From Planctomycetales bacterium (GTDB lineage: Bacteria > Planctomycetota > Planctomycetia > Planctomycetales > Planctomycetaceae): 64,000 bases of DNA. This document shows positions 1-23,122 of the stretch, in pieces. The stretch is from the NCBI GenBank assembly GCA_028285345.1, contig JANQPT010000018.1, positions 79,779 through 143,778 of the forward strand, written 5' to 3'. The notes beneath the pieces are model-generated. The model saw only the letters and a program-made list of their open reading frames with translations. It was not told where the DNA came from and searched no databases. Position 1 is the first letter of the stretch. Each line of letters opens with the position of its first letter. Made by a program: the position numbers and the translations under genes.

Positions 1-2
1 CC

Positions 3-203
3 GAGCGTGAAGACCTGGAGCAGCAAAAACGCCAGTCCGCTGAACAGGCGCTGCTGATCGCGGATGAGTCGCAGGAAGTCGCTCGCGAACGGACGGCCAT
101 TGCGCTGGAGCGGCAGGCGATTCAGGATGACCGCGACGCGCTATGCCGGCATCTCGAACAGTGGCTCAGCAGCCTCCATGGCGCTGCCGTCGAAGCTGAG
201 TAG
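3..203 (+). CDS. C-terminal fragment of a Glu/Gln/Arg-rich coiled-coil protein (5' end outside window)
   Basis: Open frame from nt 3 to TAG at 201-203. Translation ...EREDLEQQKRQSAEQALLIADESQEVARERTAIALERQAIQDD... has heptad-like E/Q/R composition similar to the coiled-coil of the 8966..12346 protein. The alternative ORF 64..291 is R-rich junk. Confidence 0.4.
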   Translation, partial: EREDLEQQKRQSAEQALLIADESQEVARERTAIALERQAIQDDRDALCRHLEQWLSSLHGAAVEAE

Positions 204-362
204 CGCGGCCACTGCTTTTTATTTGCCGAAGCCAGGCGGGCGATTGCGCTGGCCCGGTTCCATGCGTATGCAGCCGCTTGATTGTCTGTGATCGGTCCAG
301 CGGGCTACAATCACGTCCGTGCCCCGGCAGGGCTTGGCTCGGTCCCTACTCGCAAGCGGACA

Positions 363-2081
363 ATGATTATGGCGGCTTCCGAATCTCCGTTGGTCTTGAT
401 CCTAGGTGCCGGCATTAACGGGACGGCCTGTGCGCGGGAGTTGGCACTCAACGGCGTCTCTGTGGTGATCGTCGACACGTCGGACGTCGCGTTCGGGGCG
501 AGTTCGAAATCAACGCGATTGATACACGGAGGTCTGCGCTATCTGGAATACGGCGAATTCGATCTGGTGCGAGAATCGCTGGAGGAGCGCACGCGGCTGC
601 TGAGGTTGGCGCCGCAATTTGTCAGACCGCTGCGATTGTGCATTCCGGTGAACAACCGCTTTTCGGGCCTGCTGCCCTCAATGCTTCGATTCGTCCGCCT
701 GGAGCGCTGGGCGGAGACCTGGACGCAGTGGCGGCAGAGCCACGAAGCGAACCACGAAACGCGCGGCTCGTGGCTGGTTTGGATGGGTCTGCAAATGTAC
801 GGCTTGTATGCCCAGGACCGTACGCTGCCGGGCCATTCGATTCACAACACCGGCGAAGAGGGGCTTCCGGAAGTTGATGGGGAAAAGTTTCCGTGGCTGT
901 GCGCCTACAGCGACGGGCAGATTGTCAACTCCGAACGTTGGATCGTGGCGCTGCTCAAAGATGCGGAACATCTTGCGGCGGCCAAGGACCGCCGATTCGA
1001 TCTCTACACCTATCACAAAGCGGTGATCGATGGAGACGAGGTCGATATCGTTCCCGTTGATGCGCCGGGGCAAGCCACGGAACGCGTTCGCCCGTCGGTG
1101 ATCATCAACGCGACCGGCGCGTGGGGCGATGCGACGCTCTCCGATCTGCACGTCGACACGGAGCAACTCTTCGGCGGAACCAAAGGCAGCCACGTGCTGA
1201 CGTATAACGAACAACTGAAGTCGGCCTTGCACGGAAAAGGCGTTTACGCCGAAGCGGCCGACGACCGACTGATTTTTGTGTTACCGTTTGACGACGCGAT
1301 GCTGATCGGCACGACCGATGAGCCGTTCACCGCCAGTCCTGAGACCGCGACTGCCACCGATGATGAGATTGACTACCTGCTCAGTGCGGTCAACGATCTG
1401 TTTCCGACTGTTCACCTGACGCGGGACGACGTATCTCTGACGTACAGCGGTATTCGTCCGTTGCCGAAATCGTCGGCCAAGACGACCGGTGCCGTTACGC
1501 GGCGGCACTGGATTGAAGAGGAGCGGATTGGCGAGATTCCTGTGCTTACACTGGTGGGGGGTAAACTGACAACCTGCCGGGCGCTGGGGGAGCAGACGGC
1601 CGATCGGATCCTCAGTTTGTTGGAGATACCGAGAATCGGCGAGTCGCATGATCGAGTGATCCCCGGTGGAGAGAACTATCCCACCGATGACGCCGCACTC
1701 CAAGCTGAACTGCAGCGGATCGCGGACAGCCACCAGTTGGCGATCGAACAAGCCGCGGCGGTCTGGAGATTCTTCGGAACAGATTCCGAGAGGGTGCTGT
1801 CAGCGTGCTTGGGATTGCCCGGTGAAAACGTGATTGGGACACATATTCCGCTGTCGGTTGTGAATTGGATCGTTGAAAACGAATGGGTGAGCAATCTCGG
1901 CGACTTGGTTGAGCGACGGCTGCTGCTGATGTTTGAGCGTGACCTTTCGCGCAGCAGCTTACAACAATTGGCGGAACTGCTGGCGGATTGCGGCAGATTT
2001 GAGAGCAGCGAAATCCCAGGCGAGATTGATCGCACGGTCTCACGCCTGCGGGAATTCTACGGGAGAACCATCGCTGATTAG
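363..2081 (+). CDS. FAD-dependent glycerol-3-phosphate dehydrogenase family oxidoreductase (GlpD/GlpA-like)
   Basis: N-terminal Rossmann dinucleotide fold LVLILGAGINGTACARELALNGVSVVIVD. GlpD signature RLIHGGLRYLEYGEFDLVRESLEERTRL. Length ~570 aa. Start chosen at ATG 363 (MIMAASE), just before the beta-alpha-beta motif. Confidence 0.7.
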   Translation: MIMAASESPLVLILGAGINGTACARELALNGVSVVIVDTSDVAFGASSKSTRLIHGGLRYLEYGEFDLVRESLEERTRLLRLAPQFVRPLRLCIPVNNRFSGLLPSMLRFVRLERWAETWTQWRQSHEANHETRGSWLVWMGLQMYGLYAQDRTLPGHSIHNTGEEGLPEVDGEKFPWLCAYSDGQIVNSERWIVALLKDAEHLAAAKDRRFDLYTYHKAVIDGDEVDIVPVDAPGQATERVRPSVIINATGAWGDATLSDLHVDTEQLFGGTKGSHVLTYNEQLKSALHGKGVYAEAADDRLIFVLPFDDAMLIGTTDEPFTASPETATATDDEIDYLLSAVNDLFPTVHLTRDDVSLTYSGIRPLPKSSAKTTGAVTRRHWIEEERIGEIPVLTLVGGKLTTCRALGEQTADRILSLLEIPRIGESHDRVIPGGENYPTDDAALQAELQRIADSHQLAIEQAAAVWRFFGTDSERVLSACLGLPGENVIGTHIPLSVVNWIVENEWVSNLGDLVERRLLLMFERDLSRSSLQQLAELLADCGRFESSEIPGEIDRTVSRLREFYGRTIAD

Positions 2082-3619
2082 CCGGCATCGGGTGCGTTCT
2101 TGAGGCGAATTTGCTCGATCAGCTCGTCGATGGAGACCGGGTTGTCGGTATTGACCGGAACGGCATGGGGACGTTCTTTTGAGGCGAGTGGTTCTTGATT
2201 GTTGATCTGCCACTCCAACACGCTCAGGTCCGCGTCGGATACATCGCCGTGCCGCTTGCGAAGGCGGTCGCGGAGCTCGTCAACGGGCGCGGTGAGATCG
2301 AGAATGACCAGCGGCACACCCACTTCATCCGCCAGGCTGCGGAACTCATCGCGAAATTGCCGCTTGAGAAATGTCGCGTCGACGATGGCGGTGAATCCGC
2401 CGTCGAGCACGTGCCGGGCCGCCTGTGCCAACCGTTGATAGGTCGACAACGTCGCTTGCTCGGAATATAGCGACGTCTCCGATTCCGCAGCAGCGAACAA
2501 CCTTTTGCGCTCGACGTCGGAGCGGAGCCGGACTGCGGGAAGTTGTTGGAGCAATTCCTGCGTGAGTGTGCTCTTGCCGGAACCGGAGAGCCCGTGCGTC
2601 AGAATCAATTGCGGGTGTTTGGTTTGCGTGTAACGTTCCGCCAAATCGAGATAACTTTGCAGCAATTCTTCATCGGCCGCCCGTTCCTCGGCGGTCAGGT
2701 CGGGCTGAGCCAACCGCAGCGCCGTCACCTTGGCCCGGACGGTCGCGCGGTAGACCAGGTAGTAGCGCAGCACCGGCAGCCCCGCATAGTCGCCGGCTTG
2801 TTGGAGATAGGCATTGAGAAACCGCGCCGCAAGGTCGTCCCGGCCGCGGTCGCCGAGATCCATGACGGTAAAGGCGATCTCGCTCAACACGTCGATCCAC
2901 CGTAGCGAGGAGTTGAATTCGATACAGTCGAACAGCAACACGCGTGCGCCCTGCAGAATCATGTTTCGCAGGTGCAAATCGCCGTGGCATTCCCGGACGA
3001 AGCCGGCTTGCCGTCGCGCTTGAAAGTCCGGCCGGCGCCGTTCGAATTCGACCTCGGCCCACTCCCGGAGTCGATCAACCTGGCCCCGGTGATCAGAATT
3101 CAGATTCGATGGGTTCAAATGGCGGAAGTTCTCGGCCACCGGTTCCCAGACCGCTTGAGGTGTACCGTATGGCGAATCCGCGTCGGCGACGGCGATTCGC
3201 GCGTGAAACTCGGCGACCTCCGCCGCCAACGCGTCAATGTGACGCGGCAACAACTCACCGCGATCCAGCATGCTATCCAACAGCGCGTCTTGCGAGAATT
3301 GACGCATCTTCACGGCATACTCGATCGCCGGGCCGCTGCCGCCGATATGCGGATCGTCGGGGCTGCCGGTGATCTCGATGACTTCGAGATAGATGTCCTC
3401 GGAAAACCGCGCATTGAGCCGCAATTCTTCATCGCAGCATTGCCGGCGTTTGTCCAAGGTCGAAAAGTCGAGGAAACCAAAGTCGACCGGCTTTTTGATT
3501 TTGTAGGCGAACTGTCCCGTCAACAGCACCCACGAAATATGCGTCTCGAGCAATTGCACCTGCGCGACGGGATGATCGTACGCCTCGGGCCGCTGCAATG
3601 CTTGAATCAGTTGGTTCAT
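2078..3619 (-). CDS. Bifunctional phosphotransferase-like (APH/choline-kinase fold) / P-loop kinase protein
   Basis: N-terminal half (ETHISWVLLTGQFAYKIKKPV..., Brenner-like HGDLHLRNMIL) resembles the aminoglycoside phosphotransferase/protein-kinase-like fold. C-terminal half has Walker A HGLSGSGKSTL and a Walker-B-like VILD. Same architecture as proteins annotated 'bifunctional aminoglycoside phosphotransferase/ATP-binding protein'. Start ATG overlaps the truD stop (ATGA). Confidence 0.6.
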   Translation of the reverse strand: MNQLIQALQRPEAYDHPVAQVQLLETHISWVLLTGQFAYKIKKPVDFGFLDFSTLDKRRQCCDEELRLNARFSEDIYLEVIEITGSPDDPHIGGSGPAIEYAVKMRQFSQDALLDSMLDRGELLPRHIDALAAEVAEFHARIAVADADSPYGTPQAVWEPVAENFRHLNPSNLNSDHRGQVDRLREWAEVEFERRRPDFQARRQAGFVRECHGDLHLRNMILQGARVLLFDCIEFNSSLRWIDVLSEIAFTVMDLGDRGRDDLAARFLNAYLQQAGDYAGLPVLRYYLVYRATVRAKVTALRLAQPDLTAEERAADEELLQSYLDLAERYTQTKHPQLILTHGLSGSGKSTLTQELLQQLPAVRLRSDVERKRLFAAAESETSLYSEQATLSTYQRLAQAARHVLDGGFTAIVDATFLKRQFRDEFRSLADEVGVPLVILDLTAPVDELRDRLRKRHGDVSDADLSVLEWQINNQEPLASKERPHAVPVNTDNPVSIDELIEQIRLKNAPDAG

Positions 3620-4716
3620 GCGTCCGGCAGATCATGTGTCGGTTTCATAAATTCCCGCAACAGCGTTGTGGCGTAGACGCCGGCGGGAAGCTGAAACCGA
3701 AAACGGATTCCAACAGGGGTTGGTTCCAGTTGTAGCTCTTCAGGGCGGACGATGTAAGGTCTGCGGGTCCCCGACGTCAGTTGTCGAAATTGCGTGAAGG
3801 CGGCCGCGTCGAGTCCGGATTTCTCCAGCAGGCCGCGTTCGCGGTCGGCGACCGCTCCGCTGGGCGATTTCATTTTGGGGCCAAACAGCGGGCCGGTGAT
3901 CAACGTTTCGCCGCCGTCGAACCGCACTTGCTCGACGGCGGCATCTTCGGCCACAAACGGGCCGCGCGACGCCGCAACTTGCATCACGTCACCCGGCAGG
4001 ACCTTGTGCAACAGCCCGTCGGTTAACCTTTCCGCGAGGGCGGTATTGAACAGTTTGGCCTGCGCCGCGGAGAGGGCCAACTTCAACTGGAATCGCCGGC
4101 GACGGTAAGGAATGTCGGCGGCACGCTGTTCGCCGCGCAGCAGCGCGAAGCCCAAATCGGCTGTAGCGCCGTGATGGCCGAATCGTTGCTCACCGTAGTA
4201 ATTGGGAAAACCGAGCGCGGCAATCTGTTCGGCAATCGCGCCGGCCGTTTTCAACGCGTCATCGGCGGGGTCGCGAATCACGATCTCAAAGCGATTTCCC
4301 CGCAGTTGACCGGTGCGGAGTTTGTTGCCGTGCCGCGTGGAGTCGAGGACCGCGATCTGCGGCGATTCGACTTGGCCGATTCGCGGTTCACACGCAGCGG
4401 GGACGGAGAGGAACTGCCGCGTCACGGCCTGCTTGTCCTTCATGCCCGCGGCGCCGATATTGGACTGCGAAATGCCGAGCGTACGGGCGACGTGCTGCAG
4501 CAGATCACCGGCGGCGACACCCCGTTTTTCGATCCAAAGAAACAGGTGCTCCCCCGCGCCGGAGGGATGATAGGCGGGGACTTCCTCGACGATGAAATCC
4601 TCGACGGCCTGTTTCAGCCGCCCGCCGATTCCGGGCGTACCGGAGGTTAAAAACGGCAGATTGGACAACGTGTGCATTCCCCAGCGGAAGTTTGACATTC
4701 GCCGGCAATCGGCCAA
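3616..4716 (-). CDS. truD: tRNA pseudouridine(13) synthase TruD
   Basis: TruD hallmark NYYGEQRFG. N-terminal GIGGRLKQAVEDFIVEEV...SGAGEHLFLWIEKRG pattern. ~350 aa. Alternative start at 4677 (MHTLSN). Confidence 0.75.
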   Translation of the reverse strand: MADCRRMSNFRWGMHTLSNLPFLTSGTPGIGGRLKQAVEDFIVEEVPAYHPSGAGEHLFLWIEKRGVAAGDLLQHVARTLGISQSNIGAAGMKDKQAVTRQFLSVPAACEPRIGQVESPQIAVLDSTRHGNKLRTGQLRGNRFEIVIRDPADDALKTAGAIAEQIAALGFPNYYGEQRFGHHGATADLGFALLRGEQRAADIPYRRRRFQLKLALSAAQAKLFNTALAERLTDGLLHKVLPGDVMQVAASRGPFVAEDAAVEQVRFDGGETLITGPLFGPKMKSPSGAVADRERGLLEKSGLDAAAFTQFRQLTSGTRRPYIVRPEELQLEPTPVGIRFRFQLPAGVYATTLLREFMKPTHDLPDA

Positions 4717-4729
4717 TAATAGGCGTCTT

Positions 4730-4802
4730 GCCCCGTTCGTCTAGTGGCCTAGGATACCGGGTTCTCAGTCCGGTGACACGGGTTCAAATCCCGTACGGGG
4801 TA
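4730..4802 (+). tRNA. tRNA-Glu (anticodon CTC)
   Basis: Hand-folded cloverleaf: acceptor GCCCCGT/ACGGGGT, anticodon stem CCGGG/TCCGG with loop TTCTCAG (CTC), T-arm ACGGG-TTCAAAT-CCCGT, discriminator A. Strong similarity to bacterial tRNA-Glu (GTCTAGTGGCCTAGGA D-region). Confidence 0.85.
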
Positions 4803-5270
4803 CTGAATCGGTCGCGCTCGCTTTTTGATCCTGAAGCAGTTGCTGTTGCGCACGCACGCTCCACTTTGATGCGCGCTTCTGAAGATCGCATGTTGGCGGG
4901 ATCGCTAACTGCGCCAAAACTCCCTGCCCGTGTCCCACATTGCGTCACACCGGGCGCAATAAAACTCGATTTTGTCACCCTCGTCGAATTTCGGAATCTT
5001 CTTCATTCTGGAATGATACTGCGTCGTGCCGCATAGGGGGCATCGGTAGATGTCGCGGAAAAATCGTCATACCAATAGGTCGCCGCCAAGAATCCGACGA
5101 TCCCTGCGGCCAGCGTGATGCTCGGCCATACGTAAATCACCACGACTCAGCGTTATGCAAACGCCGACGAGGACAAGCTGCGCAAGCACCAGGATGATGC
5201 TTTGCAAACAACCACTTTGCGCGAAGAATATTCGTCCACTATCATGTCGCTGTGGCTGAGGCACTCCAGA
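4771..5270. repeat. Direct repeat copy A (3' half of tRNA-Glu plus ~450 bp downstream)
   Basis: ggtgacacgggttcaaatcc...ctgcgccaaaactccctgcccgtgtcccacattgcgtcaca...cttcattctggaatgatactgcgtcg...catcggtagatgtcgcggaaaaatcgtcataccaataggtcgccgcc is repeated with ~85-90% identity at 6411..~6900. Confidence 0.8.
5003..5264 (-). pseudogene. Frameshifted paralog of the small 2-TM membrane protein encoded at 6612..6851
   Basis: C-terminal peptide ...RFFRDIYRCPYAARRSIIPE* is in a different frame from upstream ...RILGGDLLV. Copy B has gcggaaaaagtcgtcat where copy A has gcggaaaaatcgtcat (1-nt indel), and reads continuously ...DDFFRDIYRCPNAKRRCIIPE*. Confidence 0.55.
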
Positions 5271-5367
5271 GATCCCGAATTTGCCAAGCTGCCGAAAAGC
5301 AGCTTAACGAAGTTTCAACCTGAATAGTTTTCGCAAATACTGTGGGCGGACTGGCGAATGACATATT

Positions 5368-5817
5368 ATGTCTGCCATGTTTCGAAGATTTGAGAAGCTG
5401 CACCTCATCCCGTCGGCCCCAAGTCGCAAGAGAAAAGTTGTCGCGGGATTCCTCTTCGTGTGCTTCGCCGTCCTGGCATCTGCGATCCGCCTCTCGCGGC
5501 CCGATTTCCACGTGCTTCCAGCTCTGACACCTTGGGATTTCGGTGGCACGTCGCCAAACTTTTTCGTCGGCGCCGCCTGTCCTCTGATCGCGTTCTTTCA
5601 GAACAAATCGCTTGATCTTCGCGAGTACGTCAAAGTCACGACCGCAGCGGCAGTCGGAATCAGCATCTACGAAATTCTGCAGATTTGGATTCCGAACCGA
5701 ACATTCGATGGAAACGACATCGTCGCGTCGTTTGTCGGATCGTTCTGCGGAATACTGGTTTGCCTGCCCGTCTTCTTTCTGAGTACCAAGCCAACCCGCG
5801 ACAATCGGTCTGAATGA
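5368..5817 (+). CDS. VanZ-like family membrane protein
   Basis: Multiple TM helices and the VanZ-type motif YEILQIWIPNRTFDGNDIVASFVGSF (E-x2-Q-x4-R-x-D-x2-D...N-x2-G). Lies in the unique segment between the two tRNA-associated repeat copies. Confidence 0.5.
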   Translation: MSAMFRRFEKLHLIPSAPSRKRKVVAGFLFVCFAVLASAIRLSRPDFHVLPALTPWDFGGTSPNFFVGAACPLIAFFQNKSLDLREYVKVTTAAAVGISIYEILQIWIPNRTFDGNDIVASFVGSFCGILVCLPVFFLSTKPTRDNRSE

Positions 5818-6020
5818 AACGGGCCAGTTTTCGCGGCTGCGAGGAAGAGGTCTTTGATTCAGACTCGATTCGCATTCCCACATCGAGGCAGTGACGCGTC
5901 GCAGGTTGACCGCCCCGACATGTTCGGCACGCCTGACTGTGCTTCACAAGACTCAGCGGTGGCGGTGACACATGCGCATGTCACGACGGTTGATGATTTT
6001 GAGGACTTGCAGCCTGGTTC

Positions 6021-6269
6021 TTACAAGGCTTCCAGGATCTCTTGAGGAGACCGACTGTCGACAGATACGACCGTGAGCCTGGAAGTATCAGCCCAAATGA
6101 TCTTACCCTCAACTCCGCAAAGCGCCGCCAATGAACGATCACCCTCATCTGATTTCGAGAGGATGTCGCCGAGCGTGGCTCCACGCATTGCTTTGAACAT
6201 GCCAAACCCTGTCCCGAGAAGGATGTATTGTTGATCCTGTTCGTCTTCGTGGCGCACGATTACAGCCAT
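6021..6269 (-). CDS. Hypothetical small protein (82 aa)
   Basis: Non-low-complexity ORF MAVIVRHEDEQDQQYILLGTGFGMFKAMRGATLGDILSK... in the insert between repeat copies. No recognisable motif. Coding status uncertain. Confidence 0.25.
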   Translation of the reverse strand: MAVIVRHEDEQDQQYILLGTGFGMFKAMRGATLGDILSKSDEGDRSLAALCGVEGKIIWADTSRLTVVSVDSRSPQEILEAL

Positions 6270-6402
6270 GAATTCCCTCTTGCATATTCTTGAAACTTAT
6301 CAAACGTGATTGACCTTACTACCACTAAGGCTGACGGACGATTATACAGGTTTCCGACCAGTGCTGCACGACTTTCATCTCTCCACAAAGTGAATCGGTT
6401 TG

Positions 6403-6439
6403 CTGAGTTCGGTGACACGGGTTCGAGTCCGGTAGGGTG
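6403..6439 (+). pseudogene. Degenerate 3' fragment of tRNA-Glu (anticodon-stem/T-arm/acceptor 3' strand only)
   Basis: gagttcggtgacacgggttcgagtccggtagggtgtac aligns to tRNA-Glu positions ~38-73 (cagtccggtgacacgggttcaaatcccgtacggggtac) with substitutions. It has no 5' half, so cannot form a cloverleaf. Confidence 0.7.
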
Positions 6440-6900
6440 TACGCGATGGGTCGCGTTTACGAACTGGCGTCGCTCTGACGGTCGCTGCCGAAGACCGCAT
6501 GTTGGTGCCATTGTTAACTGCGCCAAAACTCCTTGCCCGTGTCCCACATTACATCACATTGGTCGCAGTAAAACTCGACTTTGTCGCCCTCGTTGAATCT
6601 CGGTTTCACCTTCATTCTGGAATGATACAGCGTCGTTTTGCATTGGGGCATCGGTAGATGTCGCGGAAAAAGTCGTCATACCAATAGGTCGCCGCTATGA
6701 ATCCGACGAGGGCAACTGCGGAGAGGTGAAACCAGACGTCCTGCCTTTCAATCCGTGTGGCGGCGACTAACGTGAGCGCGGTTATGATTAGAAAGTAGGC
6801 GGTGTGCCGGCGACTTCGCTTTGCGAACTTGTGATCGATTTCTTTGCGCATTGTGTAAGCCGAAACATTGTCTGCGCCCGCAATCGCGGCAGAAGTTCAC
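6411..6900. repeat. Direct repeat copy B (partner of 4771..5270)
   Basis: See copy A. The offset between copies is ~1.61-1.64 kb. Copy B carries the intact small membrane-protein ORF. Confidence 0.8.
6612..6851 (-). CDS. Small 2-TM membrane protein (79 aa)
   Basis: MRKEIDHKFAKRSRRHTAYFLIITALTLVAATRIE...SAVALVGFIAATYWYDDFFRDIYRCPNAKRRCIIPE has two hydrophobic helices. Its 3' end lies inside repeat copy B. A frameshifted paralog lies in copy A. Confidence 0.45.
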   Translation of the reverse strand: MRKEIDHKFAKRSRRHTAYFLIITALTLVAATRIERQDVWFHLSAVALVGFIAATYWYDDFFRDIYRCPNAKRRCIIPE

Positions 6901-7286
6901 GAGTGCTCTTGGCGCGAACGGATGCGCAGGATTAATAACACCAGACCGGTCAGGCCGACGACTACCCATTGCAGTGCGGGGACGAGGAATACGGCCCATC
7001 GTTGCACTAAGCGGTAGTCCGGATCGGTGTGGTAGCGGTAGCTGTCTTCGGCGAAGAGGTAGATGCCCCAGGCGGAGATGGCGACGGCGATTGCCAGCAG
7101 CAGCCAGGAGCGGCGCGGGTTGTTGCGCTGCATCCAGCTCATACCGGCCAAGACAAAGTAGGGCGCGACGACCAACAGCGCGGCCACGACATCGCCCGGC
7201 GCGAGGTTCGTCGTGCTGGTACAGCAGAGGACGACTTCGACGGCAGCGGCCAACAGGCAGAGTCCGATGGTGAGTTTCGCAGGCAT
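6897..7286 (-). CDS. Hypothetical integral membrane protein (129 aa, 4 predicted TM)
   Basis: Uninterrupted ORF with four hydrophobic segments (LCLLAAAVEVVLCC, VVAALLVVAPYFVLAGM, LLLAIAVAISAWGIYLF, AVFLVPALQWVVVGLTGLVLLIL). Confidence 0.5.
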   Translation of the reverse strand: MPAKLTIGLCLLAAAVEVVLCCTSTTNLAPGDVVAALLVVAPYFVLAGMSWMQRNNPRRSWLLLAIAVAISAWGIYLFAEDSYRYHTDPDYRLVQRWAVFLVPALQWVVVGLTGLVLLILRIRSRQEHS

Positions 7287-7462
7287 GTTCGGCGCTTATT
7301 TAGAAATCTTGACCTGATAGGAGACAACCTCACTCGCGGCGGTTGCGGCCAATTATACGCCGCCTGCGGCCGGTTGTGCAAAACGTCGTAGATTGCTCGC
7401 CGCAATTGAGGGTCAATGAACCGAAACTGTTGAACTGACAACGTGCTCAGCGAATTGGCGGA

Positions 7463-8860
7463 TCAATTGGCCGAATCACCCAGTTCCCGCAATAGCCGAA
7501 TCGCCGTCTCGGCCATCTTTTCTCCGTTGCCCGGCTGGACGCGGGAGTTGACGGTTTCGTAGCTCCCCTCGACGAACGCTTTTTTGGTCGGGATGTAGCC
7601 GGGAGCGTCGTTGGCGAGTTCGATGACGAGCGTCGTGGGAAACGGGGAGGCCTGTTTGATGGCGATGCCCAGATCGACGAAGACTTCGCCCGGCAAAGTG
7701 ACGATGGCGACTTGCGGACTGAGGCGGAAGGCCTGGACTTCGAGGGGAATGGTGTCGACGCCGCGCAGTTGCAGCGCGGAGATCTTGTAGGCCTCGACCC
7801 GTTTGAGGAAGGGGACCTTGCGGTCGGCGACCGACTCCATGGTTTGGGCGGCGGCGGCGATTTGTTCCGACGTAAACTGCTGCACCGGCGCCGGCAGGAT
7901 CGCCGATTTGACCGCCAGTGACGGCGCGCCGACCGGCTTTAATTGCTTGAGACCTTTGATGACCGATTCGGACAGCATGCTGCCGATTTCCTGTGCGGAG
8001 CGGCGGCCGCGGGTGGTGACATCGACGTGGTTGATGTCGCCGCAGGTGCCTGATCCGAACAACGATACGTAGTCGTCGCGGAAGTGCGAACGCAAACTGT
8101 CCTGCAAATGTTTGGGGTAGTCGCCGGAGTACTTTGTCCCGCCGACCGTGTCGAGATGCAGGGCGAATGAGACGATTGCGGCAAACGGTTTTCCGCTGCC
8201 GGCGGCGGTCAGTTCGATCAGGCCGACCTCCGGATCGATCGGGCCGGCGGCGCGGATGATGTTGGGGTTTTGCTGCCCCGGATTGAAGCGGACGGTGCCG
8301 TTTTTCATGTGGAAGCGGCGATTGAAGGAGAGCCGGTCGTCGTGGGCATAACCGGCGGCGAGCTTGACCGGCTGCAGGTTTTTCTGCGCCTGTTGAATCG
8401 ACTTGGCGATGTTGGCGGCGAGTTGTGCAGGATAGTCGACTTCTTCGTGGATGTCCCGGCCATGTTTTTTGACCGTCTGGCGATGAAAGTGGGCGCGGAG
8501 TGCGCCGAAATAGAGCGGGCCGGTATGCGAATGCGTGGCGGCGACGGCGATGTGCTCATACGGGATCCCGGTCAGCTCGGCCGCCTGGCGGCGCGCCTTG
8601 GTGGCGACGTCGAGCGACACCCCGCTGATGTCGACGAACACCAGTGCCGCGGATGTGGAGCCTTGTTTGAAGACGATCGCTTTGGCGTAGAGCGGGTCGA
8701 GGATTCCTGTGCTGAGCCGTTCGCTGAAGTAGCCGCTCATGCGATACGGCACCGGCGGCGTGACGTCGACGACGGCTACGCCAGCGGAGAATTCCGCCGC
8801 GGCGGCAGATTGGATTAACGTCAAGCAACAGGATATGGCGAGAATGATTCGCAGTTTCAT
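7463..8860 (-). CDS. Secreted neutral/alkaline ceramidase-like hydrolase (N-terminal domain family)
   Basis: Signal peptide MKLRIILAISCCLTLIQSAAA. Motifs VDVTPPVPYRMSGYF and AATHSHTGP resemble the neutral ceramidase N-domain (ADITGE...MMGYG ... ATHTHSGP). 465 aa. Confidence 0.55.
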   Translation of the reverse strand: MKLRIILAISCCLTLIQSAAAAEFSAGVAVVDVTPPVPYRMSGYFSERLSTGILDPLYAKAIVFKQGSTSAALVFVDISGVSLDVATKARRQAAELTGIPYEHIAVAATHSHTGPLYFGALRAHFHRQTVKKHGRDIHEEVDYPAQLAANIAKSIQQAQKNLQPVKLAAGYAHDDRLSFNRRFHMKNGTVRFNPGQQNPNIIRAAGPIDPEVGLIELTAAGSGKPFAAIVSFALHLDTVGGTKYSGDYPKHLQDSLRSHFRDDYVSLFGSGTCGDINHVDVTTRGRRSAQEIGSMLSESVIKGLKQLKPVGAPSLAVKSAILPAPVQQFTSEQIAAAAQTMESVADRKVPFLKRVEAYKISALQLRGVDTIPLEVQAFRLSPQVAIVTLPGEVFVDLGIAIKQASPFPTTLVIELANDAPGYIPTKKAFVEGSYETVNSRVQPGNGEKMAETAIRLLRELGDSAN

Positions 8861-8965
8861 CGGAGGATGCTTTCAATTCTACGATTGCGCTGTCGGCGCT
8901 TTCGCCTCGGCGGGCGGATTATCTTGTGGATGAAACCTCGCCGCTTGCATCAGTCGCCAAATACG

Positions 8966-11900
8966 TCAACCGACCGGAGGCACGTCGCTGGGCATTTGGT
9001 CCGGTTTGGCTTCTCCGCTGTCGCCGGCGACCGGCGGCGCGTCGGGCAGGCCTTGTTTCTCGCGTTCGAAGCGTTCCCGCTCGGCGCGGAATGATGCGAT
9101 TGCGTCGCGAAAGCGCTGCTGTTCGTTTTGAAAATGCTGGACGTCCGCCTGGAACCGGCGGTGGGCTTCCTGCAGTTTTCCCTTTTCGCCCTCCAGATGC
9201 TCGCGTTCGAAGACCAATTCGGTCGCCTGCTGATGCTGCTCCTGCTCCGCGCGGGCCTTGTCGTTTTGGAAGGCCTGAACCGCCTCGCGGAACCGCTGCT
9301 GTTCGGCGAGGAATTGTTCTTGCTGCTGGGCGAATTCGGGATCACCCGGGGACGCCGCTGCCACGGGTGCTGCGCGAAGGGCGGCGAGTTCTTGCTCTAG
9401 CTTCTGTTTTTCCTCGCTCAACCGTGCCTGTGTTGATTGCGACTGCGCGAGCTCATTTTTCAGCTTCTCGAATTGTTCTTGATCGCCGGAGGCGTTGACA
9501 TCGTGCCCCATTTCGAATTTGAGCACTTCGGCGTTGAAGTGTTGCTGATCAGTGCGGAGTTTGTCCCGGTCCGCATCAAGTTTTTGCTGCGCGTCGTTGA
9601 GCGATTCGCGATCTTTGAGCAGACTGTTCTGTCCGGCTGTCAACTGCTCTTCGCGGGCCGTGAGATCGGAGTTGCGGCGCTCGAGGTCCGATTGCTGTTG
9701 GTCAAACTGTGACCGCGCGGCCGCCAATTGTTGCCGCTCCTGCTCCAGCTTCTCCCGTTCCTCCGAGGAGATCTCCGGCGCTACGGGCGGAGGAGCGGCG
9801 GCGAGTTTGTCTCGCTGTTCTTGAAGGGCCTGTTGTTCGACGTGCAGCTTATTTCGCTGGGCGTCGAGTGCCTCGCGGTCGCTGCTGAGTTGCTGGATTT
9901 GGGACTGCAATGCCTGCTGATCGGCCGCAAGTTTTGCGGTTTGTTCGTCGAACTCCGCACGGGTTCGCTCCCACTCTTGCTTCTGGGAATCCAGTTGCCG
10001 GCGTTCGTCCTCCAAGGCTGAGCGCTGCTGATTGAGCTCGTCTAATTCTGACGCGTCGACGGTCGCATCGGCAGCGAAATCCTGTTGCGTGACTTTTTCG
10101 TTGAATGCGTCCGTATCGCGCCGCAGTTCGTCCCGCTGAGCCTGCAACTCTCCCTGTTGGCGATCGAGTGCCTCGCGGTCGGCGGCCAGGGCTTGCTGCT
10201 GTTGATCCAGTTCCTGTTGGCGTGATTCGAGTTCGCTTTGCTGTGCCGTGAAATCGGACTGTTGCTGATCGAACTCACTACGGGCCTGTTCGATTTCCGC
10301 GCGCTGTCCGTCGAGCTCACCTGCGCGACGATCGACCTCGTCAGCGCGGGATTCGAGTGCCGTGCGCTCCTCTTGAAGCTGTGATTGCAACTGCTGGACG
10401 TCCGCGGCTTCGCTGGAGGCTTGTGCCTGCTGCGCCTGGTGGGTCTCCATTTCCTTCTGGAACTCGGACTTCTCGCGCTGCAAGGTTTCCCGCAGTTCCT
10501 GCGCTTGGGCCTGCTGCTGTTCCAGTTCTTTACGATCGGCGGCCTGTTTTTCGACTTCGTCCGCGATCTGCTGCTCCCGCTGTGACAACTCCTCGTCGCG
10601 TCGTTGGGCCTCAGTACGCTGTTGTTCCAAGTCGGCCCGCTGTTGGTCCAAATCGGACTTTTGTTTCTCCCAGTCCGCCATCTGGGTTTCGAGCGCGTCG
10701 CGATCCTCCTGCAGACGCTGCTGCTGTAGTTGCTGAAGCTCGACCGCTTCACCGCGGCTCTTTTCGTCCTCAGCGGATTTGTCGAGCGCGGCCTGCTGTT
10801 CTTGGCGAAACTGAGCAAGTTCCGTTTCGAGCTCTTCTCGTTTCTGCTGCAATTCCGTTTTCTCGGCCTCAAGATCCTGAGATTGGGTCGAGAGTTTGGC
10901 GAACTGGTTCTTCAGATCGGCCTGAGTCTGTTCGGCTTCTTTCTGCGCGGCTTCAAACTGTTTGCGTTCTTCCTCAAATTTGGCGCGCAGCTCGGCGATT
11001 TCTTTTTGCGCTTCTTCGGACTGAGAAACTCCGACGAGCGCCGCTTCCCGTTTCGCCTCGATACCGGCTAATTCTTCCCCGAAATTCAACTGCTCCGCCA
11101 GGAACTTCTCGTGTTCTGCCTGGAACTGCTGTTTTTCCTCCTCAAACTGCGTGCGCTCCCGGCCCAATTCTTCGAGACGCTCGGTGAGCTCTTCGAGCCG
11201 CTTGTCGTGCTCGGTTTGAAGTTCTTCCCGAATGTCGGCCAATTCTTGTTTTTCGTCCCGGAGCAGCAGTTGCGCTTCCTGAAGCTTTTCCCGCTCCGAC
11301 TGCGATTCTTTTTCAAACTGACGTTGTTGTTTCTGCAACAGTTCCCACTGTTCATCGAGCGCAGCGTGAGCCAATTTGGAAACGCCCGAGGCGGAATGGG
11401 AGACCTCGTTGACGGCGGCGACGTCGGAGACAAATTCCGCGTGCGAATATTCGGATGCTGAAGGTGATACCCCACCCGGCAGCACGATATCAGGAGGTTC
11501 TTCAACCGGTTTCAATGAGGACTCGTCGACTTCCTCGACATCGGGAAATGGCGGAAGTTCGTCGACTCCTGAGAGGGATAACTGATCGTCGTAGATGGAG
11601 TCCTCACTTGCATTGGACGACTCGGAAAAGCTGGGGCCGGTGTAGTGGATCCGCATGCGGTAGTTCTGAACGTCCAGAACCTCGCCGTCCTCAAGCAAGT
11701 GACACGCGACCTGCTGGCCGTCGACGGAAACCGTATTGCGGGAGAGTAAGTCGATCACCCACAGGCCTTGCGACGTTCTGAGCAAGGAACAATGGACCCG
11801 GGGATTGCCACCGGCGATGCGGATCTTGCAGCCGGAGACTTTGCCGGCCAGCGTCAACATGCGGCTGACGGCCCAGAAGCGGTTTTCACCGTCCTCGCGG

Positions 11901-12346
11901 AGGAATTCCAAATCGACTTCCGGCAGGGGTCCGCATTCGTCTTCGTAGCGGTTCAGAGGGTTGAGATTACCGAGCGAGAATTCGGAGCTCTTCCCCGCGA
12001 AGGGGTCGTCCGGTTCGACTTCGAGGGAAAATGATCCGATCCGCGCGCGGCGTCCGGGGACGAGCCAATCGGCGCGGCGGGGTCCGCCGGCCCAGTGGGT
12101 TCCGTTGCGGCTTCCCAAATCGACGCAAAACACGTTGCCGTTGACGACCTGGAGGTAGGCGTGACGCGAACTGACCTTGGCACAATCCAAAGTAACGTCG
12201 CAATTCGAGGAGCGTCCGATCACCGCATAGGGAGACTCGATCGTCGTCACCCACGTTTCATCGGTTTTGGTGTCCGTCAGCGCCAGCCGAATCGGTCCCT
12301 CTGCCCCCGTGGCCTTGCGCAACATTTCAACCAGCTGCTCATCCAC
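8966..12346 (-). CDS. Tandem-FHA domain protein with ~800-aa Glu/Gln/Arg-rich coiled-coil
   Basis: FHA1: AVIGRSSNCDVTLDCAKVSSRHAYLQVVNGNVFCVDLGSRNGTHWAG. FHA2: FWAVSRMLTLAGKVSGCKIRIAGG...HCSLLRTSQGLWVIDLLSRNTVSVDG. The remainder is E/Q/R/L/A-rich heptad repeats (EELQTEHDKRLEELTERLEELGRERTQFEEEKQQF...). 1126 aa. Confidence 0.8.
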   Translation of the reverse strand: MDEQLVEMLRKATGAEGPIRLALTDTKTDETWVTTIESPYAVIGRSSNCDVTLDCAKVSSRHAYLQVVNGNVFCVDLGSRNGTHWAGGPRRADWLVPGRRARIGSFSLEVEPDDPFAGKSSEFSLGNLNPLNRYEDECGPLPEVDLEFLREDGENRFWAVSRMLTLAGKVSGCKIRIAGGNPRVHCSLLRTSQGLWVIDLLSRNTVSVDGQQVACHLLEDGEVLDVQNYRMRIHYTGPSFSESSNASEDSIYDDQLSLSGVDELPPFPDVEEVDESSLKPVEEPPDIVLPGGVSPSASEYSHAEFVSDVAAVNEVSHSASGVSKLAHAALDEQWELLQKQQRQFEKESQSEREKLQEAQLLLRDEKQELADIREELQTEHDKRLEELTERLEELGRERTQFEEEKQQFQAEHEKFLAEQLNFGEELAGIEAKREAALVGVSQSEEAQKEIAELRAKFEEERKQFEAAQKEAEQTQADLKNQFAKLSTQSQDLEAEKTELQQKREELETELAQFRQEQQAALDKSAEDEKSRGEAVELQQLQQQRLQEDRDALETQMADWEKQKSDLDQQRADLEQQRTEAQRRDEELSQREQQIADEVEKQAADRKELEQQQAQAQELRETLQREKSEFQKEMETHQAQQAQASSEAADVQQLQSQLQEERTALESRADEVDRRAGELDGQRAEIEQARSEFDQQQSDFTAQQSELESRQQELDQQQQALAADREALDRQQGELQAQRDELRRDTDAFNEKVTQQDFAADATVDASELDELNQQRSALEDERRQLDSQKQEWERTRAEFDEQTAKLAADQQALQSQIQQLSSDREALDAQRNKLHVEQQALQEQRDKLAAAPPPVAPEISSEEREKLEQERQQLAAARSQFDQQQSDLERRNSDLTAREEQLTAGQNSLLKDRESLNDAQQKLDADRDKLRTDQQHFNAEVLKFEMGHDVNASGDQEQFEKLKNELAQSQSTQARLSEEKQKLEQELAALRAAPVAAASPGDPEFAQQQEQFLAEQQRFREAVQAFQNDKARAEQEQHQQATELVFEREHLEGEKGKLQEAHRRFQADVQHFQNEQQRFRDAIASFRAERERFEREKQGLPDAPPVAGDSGEAKPDQMPSDVPPVG

Positions 12347-12653
12347 GATTTCCGGTCCCTTCTCCTCTGCTTGAAGTCAACAATTGACTGTTTAAGCCTG
12401 CATTCTGGGCGGTTCGTAACGCGGAAGTCAAGGACTGTCTCGTGCCTGGAGAAGCCTCCGACAAGATTGGCTCTCGGCGAACGGCACAGCTTTCCCGACG
12501 CGACCGCCGCACGTGGGGGTTTCGTCCGATTTGACAACGAGTCCGGTGGAGATAAACTGGCGCTCCAAGCAGAGAACGAAGTATGCGCGGGTGATTTTTG
12601 ATCCGCCGCGAGACTTGATACTGAGATTGCTGTTGAGAAGTGAGGTAAGAGCG

Positions 12654-14564
12654 ATGTCACAAGCAGCCGACAAAGAGCAGTTTACGTTTCAAACAGAGAT
12701 CAAGCAGCTATTGCATTTGCTGTCGCATTCTCTGTATCAGAATCGCGAAATCACGATCCGCGAATTGGTCTCGAATGCATCGGATGCACTGGACAAGATG
12801 CGGTTTATCCAACTCAATGAAGAGGAGTACCGCGACGAAGCTGCTTTGGAGATTGTGCTCAAACCGGACGAAGAGGAGCGGGTGCTCTCGATCGTGGACA
12901 ACGGAAACGGGCTGACACATGACGAGTTGGTGGAGAATCTCGGCACGATCGCGCACAGCGGGTCGCTGGAATTCCTCAACAAACTCTCCGGCGACGCCCA
13001 AGCGGACCTTTCGCTGATCGGGCAATTCGGCGTCGGTTTCTATTCGGCGTTTATGCTGGCCGACCGGGTCGAGGTCTTAACCCGCAGCTATCGTGACGAG
13101 ACCGGTTGGCGGTGGGAGTCCGATGGAACCGGAAGTTTCTCGATCGAGCCCGCCGAAGAATCGCTGCCCCGGGGCACCTGCGTACGCTTGCATCTGAAGG
13201 AAGGTCACGAGGAGTTCACTCGCGAGGAGCGGCTGAAGTACATCATTCGCAAGCATTCCTCGTTTGTTCCGCACCCGATCAAATTGGGCGACGAGCAACT
13301 GAACGAGCAACGGGCAATTTGGTCCGAACCGAAGAGTCAGTTGAACGACGAAGACTACGACAGTTTCTATCAGTATCTGACGCATCGCGCCGACGAGAAA
13401 CCGCTGTGGCGGTTGCATCTCTCGGCAGATTCGCCGATCCAATTTCATGCACTGATCTATTGTCCGGAGACGAACCTGGAGTCGATGGGATTCGGACGGG
13501 TCGAACATGGAATGCATCTGTGCGCCAAACGGATCCTGGTGCAGGACGATTGCCGCGAATTGGTTCCCGAATATCTGCGGTTTCTGTACGGCATCGTCGA
13601 TTCGGCGGACTTGCCGCTAAATGTCTCCCGGCAAGCGCTGCAGGACGACACCGTGTTTCGCAAGATCCGGAAAGTTCTTATCAAGCGGGTGCTGGATCAC
13701 CTGGCGAAAATGGCGGCGGACCAGACCGACGAATACCTCCGATTCTATGAGCAGTTCGGCACCATTCTCCGCGAAGGGGTGAGCACCGATTTTGAAAACC
13801 GGGAGAAGATCGCCAAGCTGATGCGATTTCAATCGTCGGAGGTGAACGAGGGTGAGAATCCGACGTCGCTGGATGAGTATCTCGAACGGGCTGGAGACGA
13901 TCAAAAGCAGATCTATTACCTGGGCGGAGCGGATTTGGCGGCGATTCGGAAGAACCCCAATTTGGAGATCTTCCGTAAGAAGAACTTGGAGGTGTTATAC
14001 CTTGCCGATCCGATCGACGAGATCATGCTCTCGAACTTGCACACCTACCGCGAGAAGCAATTGACCTCGATTGATGCCGCCGACGTGGAGTTTCCCCAGA
14101 CGGAGGATTCCGACAGCGGCGAAACGGACGCGACCGATCAAAGCGAATCGGCCGACGCGACCACGCCGGGATTTGAAAAAGTGGTGAACTTGTTCAAACA
14201 GGCGTTGGGCGAGGATGTCGAGGACGTGCGCGCCTCGAAACGGCTGACGGACAGCCCGGTCTGCCTGGTGAACCCTGAAGGTTCGATGAGCACGCAAATG
14301 CAGAAAATGCTGCAGATGACGACGAAAGATTTTCAAATGTCCAAGCGGATTCTGGAAATCAATCCCTCCGCCCCGCTGATTAAGCGGTTGGGCGATCTGT
14401 CGGGAAACGCGGACCATGACGACTTCATTCGCCAATGTGCGCGGCAATTGTTCGCCAACGCGATGCTGCTGGAGGGGCTTCCTCCCAACGTCGAGGAGGT
14501 CGTCAACCGCACGCAGTCGTTTATGTCGGAGCTCGCGGAGAAGCGGTCACCGATTATTACGTAG
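12654..14564 (+). CDS. htpG: Molecular chaperone HtpG (Hsp90)
   Basis: Hsp90 N-terminal signature YQNREITIRELVSNASDALDKMR, GQFGVGFYSAFMLADRV, full length ~636 aa. Start set at ATG 12654 (MSQAADKEQFTFQTEIKQLL), preceded by gaggtaagagcg. The ORF track's 12513 start adds 47 non-conserved residues. Confidence 0.9.
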   Translation: MSQAADKEQFTFQTEIKQLLHLLSHSLYQNREITIRELVSNASDALDKMRFIQLNEEEYRDEAALEIVLKPDEEERVLSIVDNGNGLTHDELVENLGTIAHSGSLEFLNKLSGDAQADLSLIGQFGVGFYSAFMLADRVEVLTRSYRDETGWRWESDGTGSFSIEPAEESLPRGTCVRLHLKEGHEEFTREERLKYIIRKHSSFVPHPIKLGDEQLNEQRAIWSEPKSQLNDEDYDSFYQYLTHRADEKPLWRLHLSADSPIQFHALIYCPETNLESMGFGRVEHGMHLCAKRILVQDDCRELVPEYLRFLYGIVDSADLPLNVSRQALQDDTVFRKIRKVLIKRVLDHLAKMAADQTDEYLRFYEQFGTILREGVSTDFENREKIAKLMRFQSSEVNEGENPTSLDEYLERAGDDQKQIYYLGGADLAAIRKNPNLEIFRKKNLEVLYLADPIDEIMLSNLHTYREKQLTSIDAADVEFPQTEDSDSGETDATDQSESADATTPGFEKVVNLFKQALGEDVEDVRASKRLTDSPVCLVNPEGSMSTQMQKMLQMTTKDFQMSKRILEINPSAPLIKRLGDLSGNADHDDFIRQCARQLFANAMLLEGLPPNVEEVVNRTQSFMSELAEKRSPIIT

Positions 14565-20635: not shown

Positions 20636-21160
20636 ATGACTCTGAGGCAGATGCCAATCATGAGTGAAAACGACCCGTACCGTAAATTGTATCCGCCCTC
20701 GCCAACGCCGACCGATGAGACTTGCTCCTGTCCCGCCCAGCACCCTGCCAAGTTGATGTGCGCACTGGGATACAACCCGCTGCATTGCATGGAATGCAAT
20801 AAGGAAATTCTTCCAAGTTCTCTGGGGATTGGTGCAACGCTTGTCGATGGAATCGCCAACTGGCGAGCTATTTACGACGCAATTGATCGCCTTTGGTTGG
20901 ACTCTGCCGAGTACGAACTTTGGGCTGAACACGAGCTGGCAGAGATATCGAGTCCCGTAAATAGACGTGGCCGCGAAATCAGCAGCGCGATTAATGAACA
21001 GCACAAATGCTATTATTGGTACTTCCAGAATCAATCAGTGGACGATTTCGAGCCGATATCAAACTGTCCGGTCTGTGAGAAACTGCTTGACGTATACACG
21101 GGTGGAATCTTCCGACAATTGACTTGCGAACCGTGCGGCTTGGTCACGGTCGGTGAGTAA
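20636..21160 (+). CDS. Hypothetical Cys-rich (zinc-ribbon-like) protein
   Basis: CSCPAQHP...CALGYNPLHCMECNKE and CPVCEKLL...CEPCG suggest two Zn-ribbon-like units. The ORF track starts at a TTG at 20615. The first ATG is 20636. Confidence 0.45.
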   Translation: MTLRQMPIMSENDPYRKLYPPSPTPTDETCSCPAQHPAKLMCALGYNPLHCMECNKEILPSSLGIGATLVDGIANWRAIYDAIDRLWLDSAEYELWAEHELAEISSPVNRRGREISSAINEQHKCYYWYFQNQSVDDFEPISNCPVCEKLLDVYTGGIFRQLTCEPCGLVTVGE

Positions 21161-21238
21161 CGCTAGGCTCGACATTGTCAGAAATCATCTGCCAGCGGCC
21201 ACGTAAAGAACCGCGTTTGAGGCGTCTCGGCTCAAATC

Positions 21239-21907
21239 ATGGAACTACCGACCGACATGCTCGCGGAGATTGACCGTCTTGGGGAAAGTCGTGCGCGCAT
21301 TGAGAGGCTGAGTAAAGAAGAGGGACTAGAGTTTGCTCGCTTTTTTCTGCAAGAAGCGAGTAAATGTGCAGCGTTGTTCGACAAATGGTTCCCACAGCTC
21401 CAAGAATTCGCTGAAGGCGCGCGCCGGGCGAATCCAATACCGGTGGAAAGTGACCTATCACCAACCGAACTTGCCTTCCGTCGGATACTGCAGCCGAAGA
21501 TTGCCAGCGCAGAGCGAGTTCCCCAGCGAAACAACTACACGGCTGCAATCTTCACGGCACCGTTGGTGGTGCTCCCGCTCGTCATCGCTGAATGGCCATC
21601 AACCTATCGAAACAGAGTCTTTTTAACTGCGGATGAATTCAAGGAGTGGAATAGGAATTACGACGAACCAAAGTATTCACCGTGGTGGTACGTTTATCAG
21701 TATTGGGAGATTGAACCAAATCCGCCGCAAGATTTACTTTGGCTTAAACGTTCACAGTATACGTTGCCCCCGCATGCGACTTCACTGCTCGTTTCCTGGG
21801 GATTGTGTTTAGATGCAATTGCAGGTCGCGGAGAAGGCGAATTGTGGCACCTCGACCAGAGTGGTTGCGAAACACGAACAGCTCATTCATGGGAAGAGTA
21901 TTTTTGA
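21239..21907 (+). CDS. Hypothetical protein (222 aa)
   Basis: Long ORF at the start of the lower-GC segment. No recognisable motif. Confidence 0.45.
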   Translation: MELPTDMLAEIDRLGESRARIERLSKEEGLEFARFFLQEASKCAALFDKWFPQLQEFAEGARRANPIPVESDLSPTELAFRRILQPKIASAERVPQRNNYTAAIFTAPLVVLPLVIAEWPSTYRNRVFLTADEFKEWNRNYDEPKYSPWWYVYQYWEIEPNPPQDLLWLKRSQYTLPPHATSLLVSWGLCLDAIAGRGEGELWHLDQSGCETRTAHSWEEYF

Positions 21908-21997
21908 ACTGCTACTGGCCGATACCGCAAGATTGAAATGTTTCAATCAGAGTGCTGACTGCCCGAGTCGCAAAGAGCTTTAGAACATCTCATCACC

Positions 21998-22285: not shown

Positions 22286-22292
22286 CTTACCA

Positions 22293-23036: not shown

Positions 23037-23122
23037 GTCTTCGATGGCCGGAGAATCGCACGCGTATTTTCAGCGGTGGAAGGTTCGTGTTGTGCTGCCT
23101 TCACTTCCGTCGAAAGCCTGAC

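Follow-up and report, generated by a model that had tools for sequence, protein, structure and literature searches.

A putative decayed, integrase-less insertion scar at a tRNA-Glu(CTC) gene of a Planctomycetales bacterium

Insertions at tRNA genes and the tRNA-Glu(CTC) locus

The attP and attB sites of phage HP1 share a long identity (~182 bp) over the 3′ part of a host tRNA operon, and in Campbell's model attachment (att) sites evolve by the pick-up of host flanking DNA. The integration of suicide plasmids is an insertion-duplication that proceeds by single-crossover homologous recombination. Here we describe a locus that resembles each of these systems in part: an intact tRNA-Glu(CTC) gene followed 1.64 kb downstream by a decayed copy of its 3′ part, found in a 64,000-nt stretch of DNA (hereafter the window, to which coordinates refer unless another sequence is named) from an uncultured Planctomycetales bacterium (GenBank assembly GCA_028285345.1, contig JANQPT010000018.1, positions 79,779 to 143,778 of the forward strand).

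Among described systems, Islander maps islands in tRNA genes (tDNA islands) by tRNA 3′ fragments (3760 of 3919 islands), with 2083 anticodon-centred att sites (PMC4383910). The anticodon-centred sites are class 'A' of the tDNA sites (Williams 2002, as cited in PMC4383910), and the signature of tyrosine-integrase insertion at the anticodon sublocation has been described (PMC4383910; PMC9897764). In a survey of tDNA islands, repeats measured 15-221 bp and the smallest integrase-bearing island 3.5 kb (10.1101/2020.11.02.365908). Also relevant are cis-mobilizable elements (CIMEs), decayed remnants of integrative and conjugative or integrative and mobilizable elements that keep attL and attR without integration and transfer genes (PMC5704250), and tRNA-anchored flexible islands such as the tycheposons of Prochlorococcus, with their relic partial tRNAs and carried adjacent host material (10.1101/2020.12.28.424599).

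We interpret the locus as what is left of a site-specific insertion that entered tRNA-Glu(CTC) at the anticodon-loop sublocation, a reading to which we give about an even chance of being correct. The feature is most likely a decayed, integrase-less insertion scar of a well-known kind, with one mildly unusual trait, its long arm homology. It resembles the class 'A' islands in its apparently regenerated tRNA, its same-orientation 3′ fragment starting from the anticodon stem, the atypical DNA between the two, and a site that varies among relatives; it is unlike Islander islands in that no tyrosine integrase was found, in its length of just 1.64 kb, and in a repeat that continues ~330 bp past the tRNA at 65-95% identity. 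A regenerated tRNA, a displaced fragment, atypical composition, a variable interval and a recurrent boundary together constitute the standard tyrosine-integrase insertion signature, and the missing integrase and tiny size fit a decayed, CIME-like remnant.

The likeness to CIMEs lies in putatively att-derived repeats at the tRNA 3′ end and in cargo that alone is left, with no integrase or transfer genes found; the absence of mobility genes that characterizes CIMEs is seen here in the open reading frame (ORF) scans and in searches of PHROGs and NCBIfam. Unlike in CIMEs, the core on the attR side is mutated (8-nt loop, stem mismatches), which makes mobilisation in trans doubtful, and no resident helper element was seen. 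With tycheposon islands the locus shares a conserved tRNA bordering a variable interval, a partial tRNA relic and leftover cargo genes, but it has no hallmark genes (integrase, replication module), belongs to a different phylum, and is a single scar rather than an array. As in HP1 and Campbell's model, there would be an arm with host-derived DNA well past the crossover, and an insertion that regenerates what it splits; unlike in HP1, the extra homology covers the 3′ end of an uninterrupted convergent gene, is diverged, and has no obvious restorative role.

A displaced tRNA fragment and a mosaic repeat

ARAGORN and Rfam find one tRNA gene in the window, and it is the intact tRNA-Glu(CTC) that a preliminary description of this DNA, made from the letters alone, had placed at 4730..4802. 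Its displaced 3′ part is recognizable as a direct-repeat pair (4764-4816 and 6403-6455, offset 1639, 79% identity, BLAST E 4e-7), and none of 500 dinucleotide shuffles reached the local score of the tRNA 3′ part against the fragment. With a 1-nt indel, the homology begins in the 5′ strand of the anticodon stem, at 4756 / 6394, and extends as far as the tRNA 3′ end, at 4802 / 6441; its left edge falls at raw tRNA position 27, and the longest exact stretch within the tRNA part is 15 nt. The preliminary description had correctly noticed a displaced fragment and had limited it to the 3′ third of the tRNA (6403..6439); it in fact starts at 6394 in the anticodon stem, with 38 of 47 nt matching. Intact gene and cognate fragment lie on the same strand (+) and in the same orientation, and the fragment edge falls at a recognised crossover sublocation, the anticodon stem-loop, both as in Islander-type islands.

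The fragment itself has decayed. Its anticodon loop measures 8 nt (TTGCTGAG), giving an altered stem-loop, TCGGT-TTGCTGAG-TTCGG, on the attR side; one T-stem pair is broken, and the tRNA part as a whole is 81% identical to its intact counterpart. Nothing resembling the 5′ half of the tRNA precedes the fragment (the alignment score is reached by 435 of 500 shuffles), no second tRNA is detected in the window by ARAGORN or Rfam (E up to 10), and no promoter-like site was found upstream of the fragment. BLAST and shuffle-tested alignment likewise gave no third tRNA fragment in 5100-9000 or elsewhere in the window. On these grounds we regard 6394-6441 as a dead tRNA fragment and not as a gene; the possibility, raised in the preliminary description, that it folds with its upstream sequence into a complete tRNA is contradicted by the ARAGORN and Rfam results and by a 5′ half that aligns at chance level.

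Homologous DNA continues 3′ of both tRNA parts (228 nt, 86%, E 1e-71 by BLAST) through a spacer into the 3′ part of a convergent gene, here called ZR, so that each repeat copy (A on the side of the intact tRNA, B on the side of the fragment) is a mosaic of blocks with different identities (Table 1). A separate identical stretch of 27 nt lies at 5037-5063. From 5103 on, identity falls to 39%, which is chance level, as 154 of 500 shuffles reach the DNA score and BLASTP yields no alignment. The right boundary of copy A lies somewhere between 5102 and ~5140, and a short in-frame match (VW ... VGF) suggests a true edge near 5135. BLAST found no further copy of the repeat in the 64 kb and no second copy of 5136-6393 in the window. 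Homology after both tRNA parts had been anticipated, at ~450 bp and 85-90% identity; the homology is confirmed, with the length corrected to ~380 bp (A) and ~352 bp (B) and the identity to a mosaic of 65-95%. The accompanying remark that the repeats are far longer than a typical att core is borne out when ~380 bp is set against the surveyed 15-221 bp. A delineation in which the repeat covered the whole ZR gene (~470 bp, with two frameshifts in copy A) was dropped, the N-terminal parts being non-homologous by shuffling and BLASTP.

ZR is a minus-strand gene with two predicted transmembrane helices, a YWYDDFFRDIYR motif, and a C-terminal CPxC-x21-CxxC zinc ribbon. The two copies carry different frameshifts: the G-run at 6645-6648 has four G's in ZR-B and five in copy A, and in ZR-A a G of copy B is missing between 5063 and 5064. 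Because neither copy is shifted at the point where the other is, the ancestral ZR can be reconstructed as an intact ORF of ~112 aa, and both copies would now be pseudogenes unless the frameshifts are assembly errors. Comparison of ZR-A with ZR-B gives a dN/dS of 0.53 and a dS of 0.21. With the reconstructed protein as query, no homologs were found in 5.8e9 proteins, viral contigs or metagenomes of the Joint Genome Institute (JGI), and PHROGs and NCBIfam returned nothing significant. ZR is known just as two differently frameshifted copies at the tRNA-Glu locus.

Divergence is unevenly distributed along the repeat, with mismatches at 23 of 195 sites in the coding block versus 25 of 72 in the spacer (Fisher p 5e-5), and with K estimated at 0.47 for the spacer and 0.205 for the tRNA fragment; these estimates come from 39-195 sites with wide intervals, and the spacer alignment contains an indel. 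A copy made in situ and neutral from the start predicts K_ZR >= 0.5 K_spacer, for which the posterior probability is 0.027. The less-diverged coding block fits two alleles that may have diverged while each was a working gene. ZR is complete in copy B, on the fragment side, and has no N-terminus in copy A, on the side of the intact tRNA, as would be expected if B were native and A imported. Because copy B is complete, coding divergence is low, and a neutral copy A is disfavoured, we favour an incoming arm with flank from a related genome. As a clock for distinguishing a conspecific from another donor, the divergence has confidence intervals too wide to decide.

Table 1 Features of the tRNA-Glu(CTC) locus and its surroundings in the window
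Feature	Coordinates	Strand	Remarks
Promoter-like site of tRNA-Glu	4692-4720	+	TTGACA-17-AATAAT, 11/12 matches; motif match
tRNA-Glu(CTC), intact	4730-4802 (end 4802/3)	+	ARAGORN; Rfam RF00005 55.2 bits, E 1.6e-10
Repeat copy A, ~380 bp	4756-~5135	+	tRNA 3′ part, 102-nt spacer, 3′ ~230 nt of ZR gene
Spacer	4803-4904 (copy A)		65% identity, 30-nt indel
Coding block, first part	4905-5060 (copy A)		86.5% identity
Coding block, second part	5061-5102 (copy A)		95% identity
ZR-A, putative pseudogene fragment without homologous N-terminus	4905-5143	-	frameshift between 5063 and 5064
Unique segment of the putative insertion, ~1.25 kb	5136-6393	.	GC 0.527; no mobility gene detected
VanZ-like membrane protein gene, intact	5368-5817	+	149 aa; Pfam VanZ 26.3 bits, below 30.1-bit cutoff
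orf82, intact	6021-6269	-	~80-aa family without Pfam model; 157 representatives at E<=1e-3
Decayed tRNA-Glu 3′ fragment (putative attR-side scar)	6394-6441	+	38/47 nt match to 4756-4802, 81%
Repeat copy B, ~352 bp	6394-~6745	+	tRNA fragment, 72-nt spacer, 3′ part of ZR-B
ZR-B, full length	6514-6851	-	~112 aa when reconstructed; one frameshift at G-run 6645-6648
129-aa multi-transmembrane membrane protein gene	6897-7286	-	GC3 0.81 (host-like)

The interval is also compositionally atypical. GC content at 4804-6896 is 0.533 versus 0.58 in the window, within the lowest 4% of windows of the same size, and GC at third codon positions (GC3) is 0.55-0.65 there versus 0.68-0.81 in flanking genes. A scan of 30 larger ORFs across the 64 kb, which did not include several large ORFs, detected no integrase or recombinase, and 10 other-frame ORFs in and around the element likewise gave no integrase. 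The tyrosine integrase inside the island that is typical of Islander-type islands is missing, with no Phage_integrase match in the ORFs scanned; neither an excisionase nor another mobile-element hallmark was detected, and PHROGs and NCBIfam gave nothing. The absence of an integrase stated in the preliminary description is thus upheld for the 30 larger and 10 other-frame ORFs, and its VanZ-like gene and small ORF between the copies are present as well, at 5368-5817 (+) and 6021-6269 (-).

Relatives and the weighing of explanations

Symmachiella-like relatives, found by protein search, have TruD proteins 66-68% identical to that of the window; one of them, the metagenome-assembled genome (MAG) GCA_942492455.1 (L080), shows 66% identity in TruD and 73% in the ceramidase-like protein. 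In L077/L078, L080 and L083, tRNA-Glu(CTC) and truD have exactly the arrangement seen in the window, with the tRNA upstream and in divergent orientation, and the tRNA of the window is the same as that of L083 and differs by 1 nt from those of L077, L078 and L080. In L077 and L080, genes for HSP90, an FHA-coil protein and ceramidase are followed by a variable interval of ~4 kb that ends at the tRNA 3′ end; its genes differ by lineage and include no match to ZR, orf82, the VanZ-like gene or the 129-aa membrane gene. In every relative the locus has just one tRNA-Glu, contrary to the ancestral arrangement with two functional tRNA-Glu genes that the preliminary description had named as evidence against an integrative element.

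One relative carries an analogous insertion. L080 has a decayed tRNA fragment from tRNA position 26, located 381 bp after its tRNA-Glu(CTC); the 381-bp insertion has no ORFs (region 9456-9905, minus strand, compared with L077 9807-9906 and L083 1-204). L077 and L080 are 92-94% identical at the DNA level, and the 3′ part of the L077 tRNA together with 27 nt of downstream flank aligns to the L080 fragment and its flank (84% over 77 nt); therefore L077, and L083, which is collinear with it, represent the empty site and L080 the occupied one. The L080 insertion is an independent event in a distant lineage, and its left boundary coincides with that in the window (position 26 versus 27). Its 333-nt insert shows no significant similarity to the element in the window, and a 15-nt exact match between the insert and the terminator arm of L077 is borderline (E 0.009). 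A terminator-like hairpin directly follows the tRNA in the empty-site relatives L077 and L083, and this terminator motif is not present in the window. A near-consensus sigma-70-type promoter stands directly 5′ of tRNA-Glu and, judged by eye, is kept in relatives (L080 ~9915-9945, L083 ~215-245), where the adjacent TruD is just 66-68% identical.

Wider searches added little to this set. A scan of GTDB representatives with TruD gave a best match of 60% identity with synteny lost, and among 42 GTDB TruD loci none has tRNA-Glu beside truD or shares the ceramidase or kinase neighbours. No matches in JGI metagenomes were obtained with an exact 56-nt tRNA pattern, which is too strict, since the tRNAs of L077 and L080 each depart from that of the window by 1 nt in the D loop. 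In viral contigs, patterns from the tRNA 3′ part gave first no match and later a single irrelevant one, a phage tRNA-Asp within an array of tRNAs. Logan contig SRR20820731_90630, from a second assembly, matches window positions 1-13046 at 100% identity and may share the same reads; it was the sole match in exact look-ups of window proteins, which returned no further cluster members.

Under the insertion reading, the native locus would have consisted of tRNA-Glu, a spacer and then the convergent ZR gene. Recombination at the anticodon stem-loop would have joined incoming DNA to the tRNA gene, the tRNA-proximal arm of that DNA supplying a new tRNA 3′ part (4756-4802, the attL side) such that the tRNA stayed functional, and the original 3′ part (6394-6441), along with the native flank of spacer and full-length ZR-B, would have been pushed 1.64 kb downstream. 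The incoming arm would also have carried ~330 bp homologous to the host downstream flank (spacer and 3′ part of a ZR allele), as expected of an element with flanking DNA acquired earlier from a related genome. The integrase gene may have been lost by deletion or may never have been carried, with mobilisation in trans. The outcome would be the present state of two intact cargo genes (VanZ-like and orf82) and two frameshifted ZR copies, and given these frameshifts and the mutated core on the attR side, the segment is now probably immobile. Integrase catalysis, a foreign origin of copy A and loss of the integrase are thus steps that we infer. The preliminary description had likened the locus to attL/attR of a tRNA-targeting element, offering as alternatives a decayed island and a segmental duplication into which DNA was later inserted. 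We retain the att scar, given that the 3′ part alone is duplicated, in direct orientation, within a variable interval of low GC and GC3, and given the L080/L077 pair; a classical att core is not retained, as the repeat runs into the neighbouring gene. The nearest homologs of the cargo genes (68-69% identity), which occur in unrelated contexts of other organisms, may also be counted for an insertion.

Several observations weigh against this interpretation. Neither an integrase nor a remnant of one is present in the ORFs scanned (30 larger, 10 other-frame). The ~380-bp repeat exceeds the surveyed 15-221 bp, and at 1.64 kb the element is below the 3.5-kb minimum (10.1101/2020.11.02.365908). With the copies just 65-95% identical, there is no exact core from which to read the recombination event, and gene conversion between them could mimic the low divergence of the coding block. 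ZR-B, the supposed native copy, itself has low GC3 and could belong to an older island. The closest genome has 68% TruD identity, with no same-genus relative, and the empty/occupied pair pertains just to the analogous L080 insertion. Lastly, the homology past the tRNA is a partial duplication of the neighbouring gene and not a classical att core, which calls for an extra assumption; the candidates are a host-derived arm, a homologous insertion, or tandem accretion.

The strongest competitor, which we nonetheless consider unlikely, is a Campbell-type insertion-duplication, in which a small circular or transforming DNA with ~380 bp of homology, the VanZ-like gene and orf82 would have entered by a single RecA-dependent crossover. 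Such a crossover yields exactly the observed order of homologous block, unique DNA and homologous block, with direct repeats of several hundred bp bracketing the insert; it requires no recombinase gene and accounts both for the missing integrase and for a repeat far beyond att-core length. Elements carrying adjacent host material are also reported in viral-fraction metagenomes (10.1101/2020.12.28.424599). However, unlike an insertion-duplication of this type, the locus has its left edge at a canonical integrase sublocation that recurs in an independent event, and a single crossover alone leaves both the anticodon-stem edge and the same edge in L080 (26/27) unexplained, such that an integrase-made junction would still be needed in the donor. 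A donor molecule of 1.64 kb is moreover implausibly small unless later deletions are assumed.

Slightly less likely still is tandem accretion, whereby ZR would be element-borne and each element would begin with a tRNA 3′ part, a spacer and ZR; copy B would represent the left end of an older element whose other parts, its far att scar included, have eroded, and the stretch from copy A to orf82 would be a younger one that entered the regenerated tRNA. The low GC and GC3 of ZR-B and its surroundings up to ~6900 point in this direction, as does the absence of ZR from all relatives and from 5.8 billion proteins, and both tandem arrays and partial tRNAs left dispersed by successive integrations are well known from the literature (PMC4383910; PMC5704250; 10.1101/2020.12.28.424599). 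Against it, neither 5100-9000 nor the rest of the window contains a third tRNA fragment, the ZR homology ends inside the gene instead of covering the whole of an element-borne gene, and no integrase was found in either putative element.

We give somewhat less credence again to a segmental duplication in situ by slippage, template switching or unequal exchange, with the VanZ-like/orf82 segment inserted or retained between the copies and subsequent decay. Such a duplication, if gene conversion came after it, would give the architecture seen here. That the K of the spacer (0.47) is ~2x that of the tRNA fragment (0.205) would be consistent with copies that were once identical, with a wide error on this ratio, and the lack of detected mobility genes agrees as well. 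Yet tandem units of 1639 bp should abut and match throughout, and here the first ~380 bp alone do; the endpoint coincides with a canonical integrase sublocation shared with the independent L080 event; the interval is compositionally atypical; and a truncated copy should drift neutrally, whereas divergence in the coding block is 3-4 times lower than in the spacer (P = 0.027 for the lower bound of the model).

It is improbable, in our estimation, that the 1.64-kb segment and the 381-bp segment of L080 belong to an undescribed class of tiny, cargo-only, integrase-less elements of Planctomycetaceae; in this joint scenario, the elements would be moved by a trans-acting integrase with specificity for the anticodon loop of tRNA-Glu(CTC), and the arm would be captured host flank. 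Were it true, this small class would show, at one moment, how att arms evolve by picking up host DNA. A decayed ancestral second tRNA-Glu, which would require the 5′ half, D arm and acceptor pairing of a complete cloverleaf that the fragment does not have, is rejected on the sequence evidence: the 3′ similarity that alone favours it is opposed by a 5′ half at chance (435/500), no second tRNA call, no promoter-like site, and the single tRNA-Glu of all relatives.

Cargo, neighbouring genes and wider context

The two genes of the unique segment have no evident special significance as cargo. The sole homolog found for the VanZ-like protein (L081, 68% identity) has different surroundings that include no tRNA, and the nearest homolog of orf82, at 69% identity, is likewise in an unrelated genomic context (L082). 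The well-conserved orf82 family has the consensus MATIVxH..YILLGxGFGxYKS..GDL..EG..AVCD..G.I.W..S..L.VVSVDG. Its AlphaFold model is all-beta (pLDDT 87), and a fold search returned no significant match in the PDB, with a weak Tudor/SH3-like resemblance at E > 0.1.

If the insertion reading is correct, the locus identifies tRNA-Glu(CTC) as a site of repeated insertion in Symmachiella-like Planctomycetaceae, with precise coordinates for one scar; a literature search found no integrative element described at tRNA-Glu(CTC) for this group. The repeat reaching ~330 bp past the tRNA end would be a mildly unusual case of an inserted arm with host-like flank, and the locus is a worked case in which annotation pipelines ought not to report a piece of a tRNA gene as a gene. 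Otherwise it would be an ordinary product of genome flux.

The 129-aa multi-transmembrane protein gene sits between ZR-B and the ceramidase gene and has no family assignment; it closes the variable interval, next to the conserved ceramidase-like gene (7463-8860), and is absent from the loci of relatives. Beyond it, the gene order HSP90, a ~1100-aa protein with FHA and coiled-coil regions (HmpF-like) and a neutral-ceramidase-like protein is conserved (window 7463-14564; L077 and L080 1-6000), and on the other side synteny beyond truD is lost between the window and the Symmachiella-like MAGs. The lowest-GC patch of the window lies elsewhere, at ~21000-23100 (GC 0.494 over 2.1 kb); its ORFs at 21239-21907 (+) and 22293-23036 (-) have no Pfam match, no tRNA or tRNA-Glu fragment is nearby, and the patch may be another accessory insertion.

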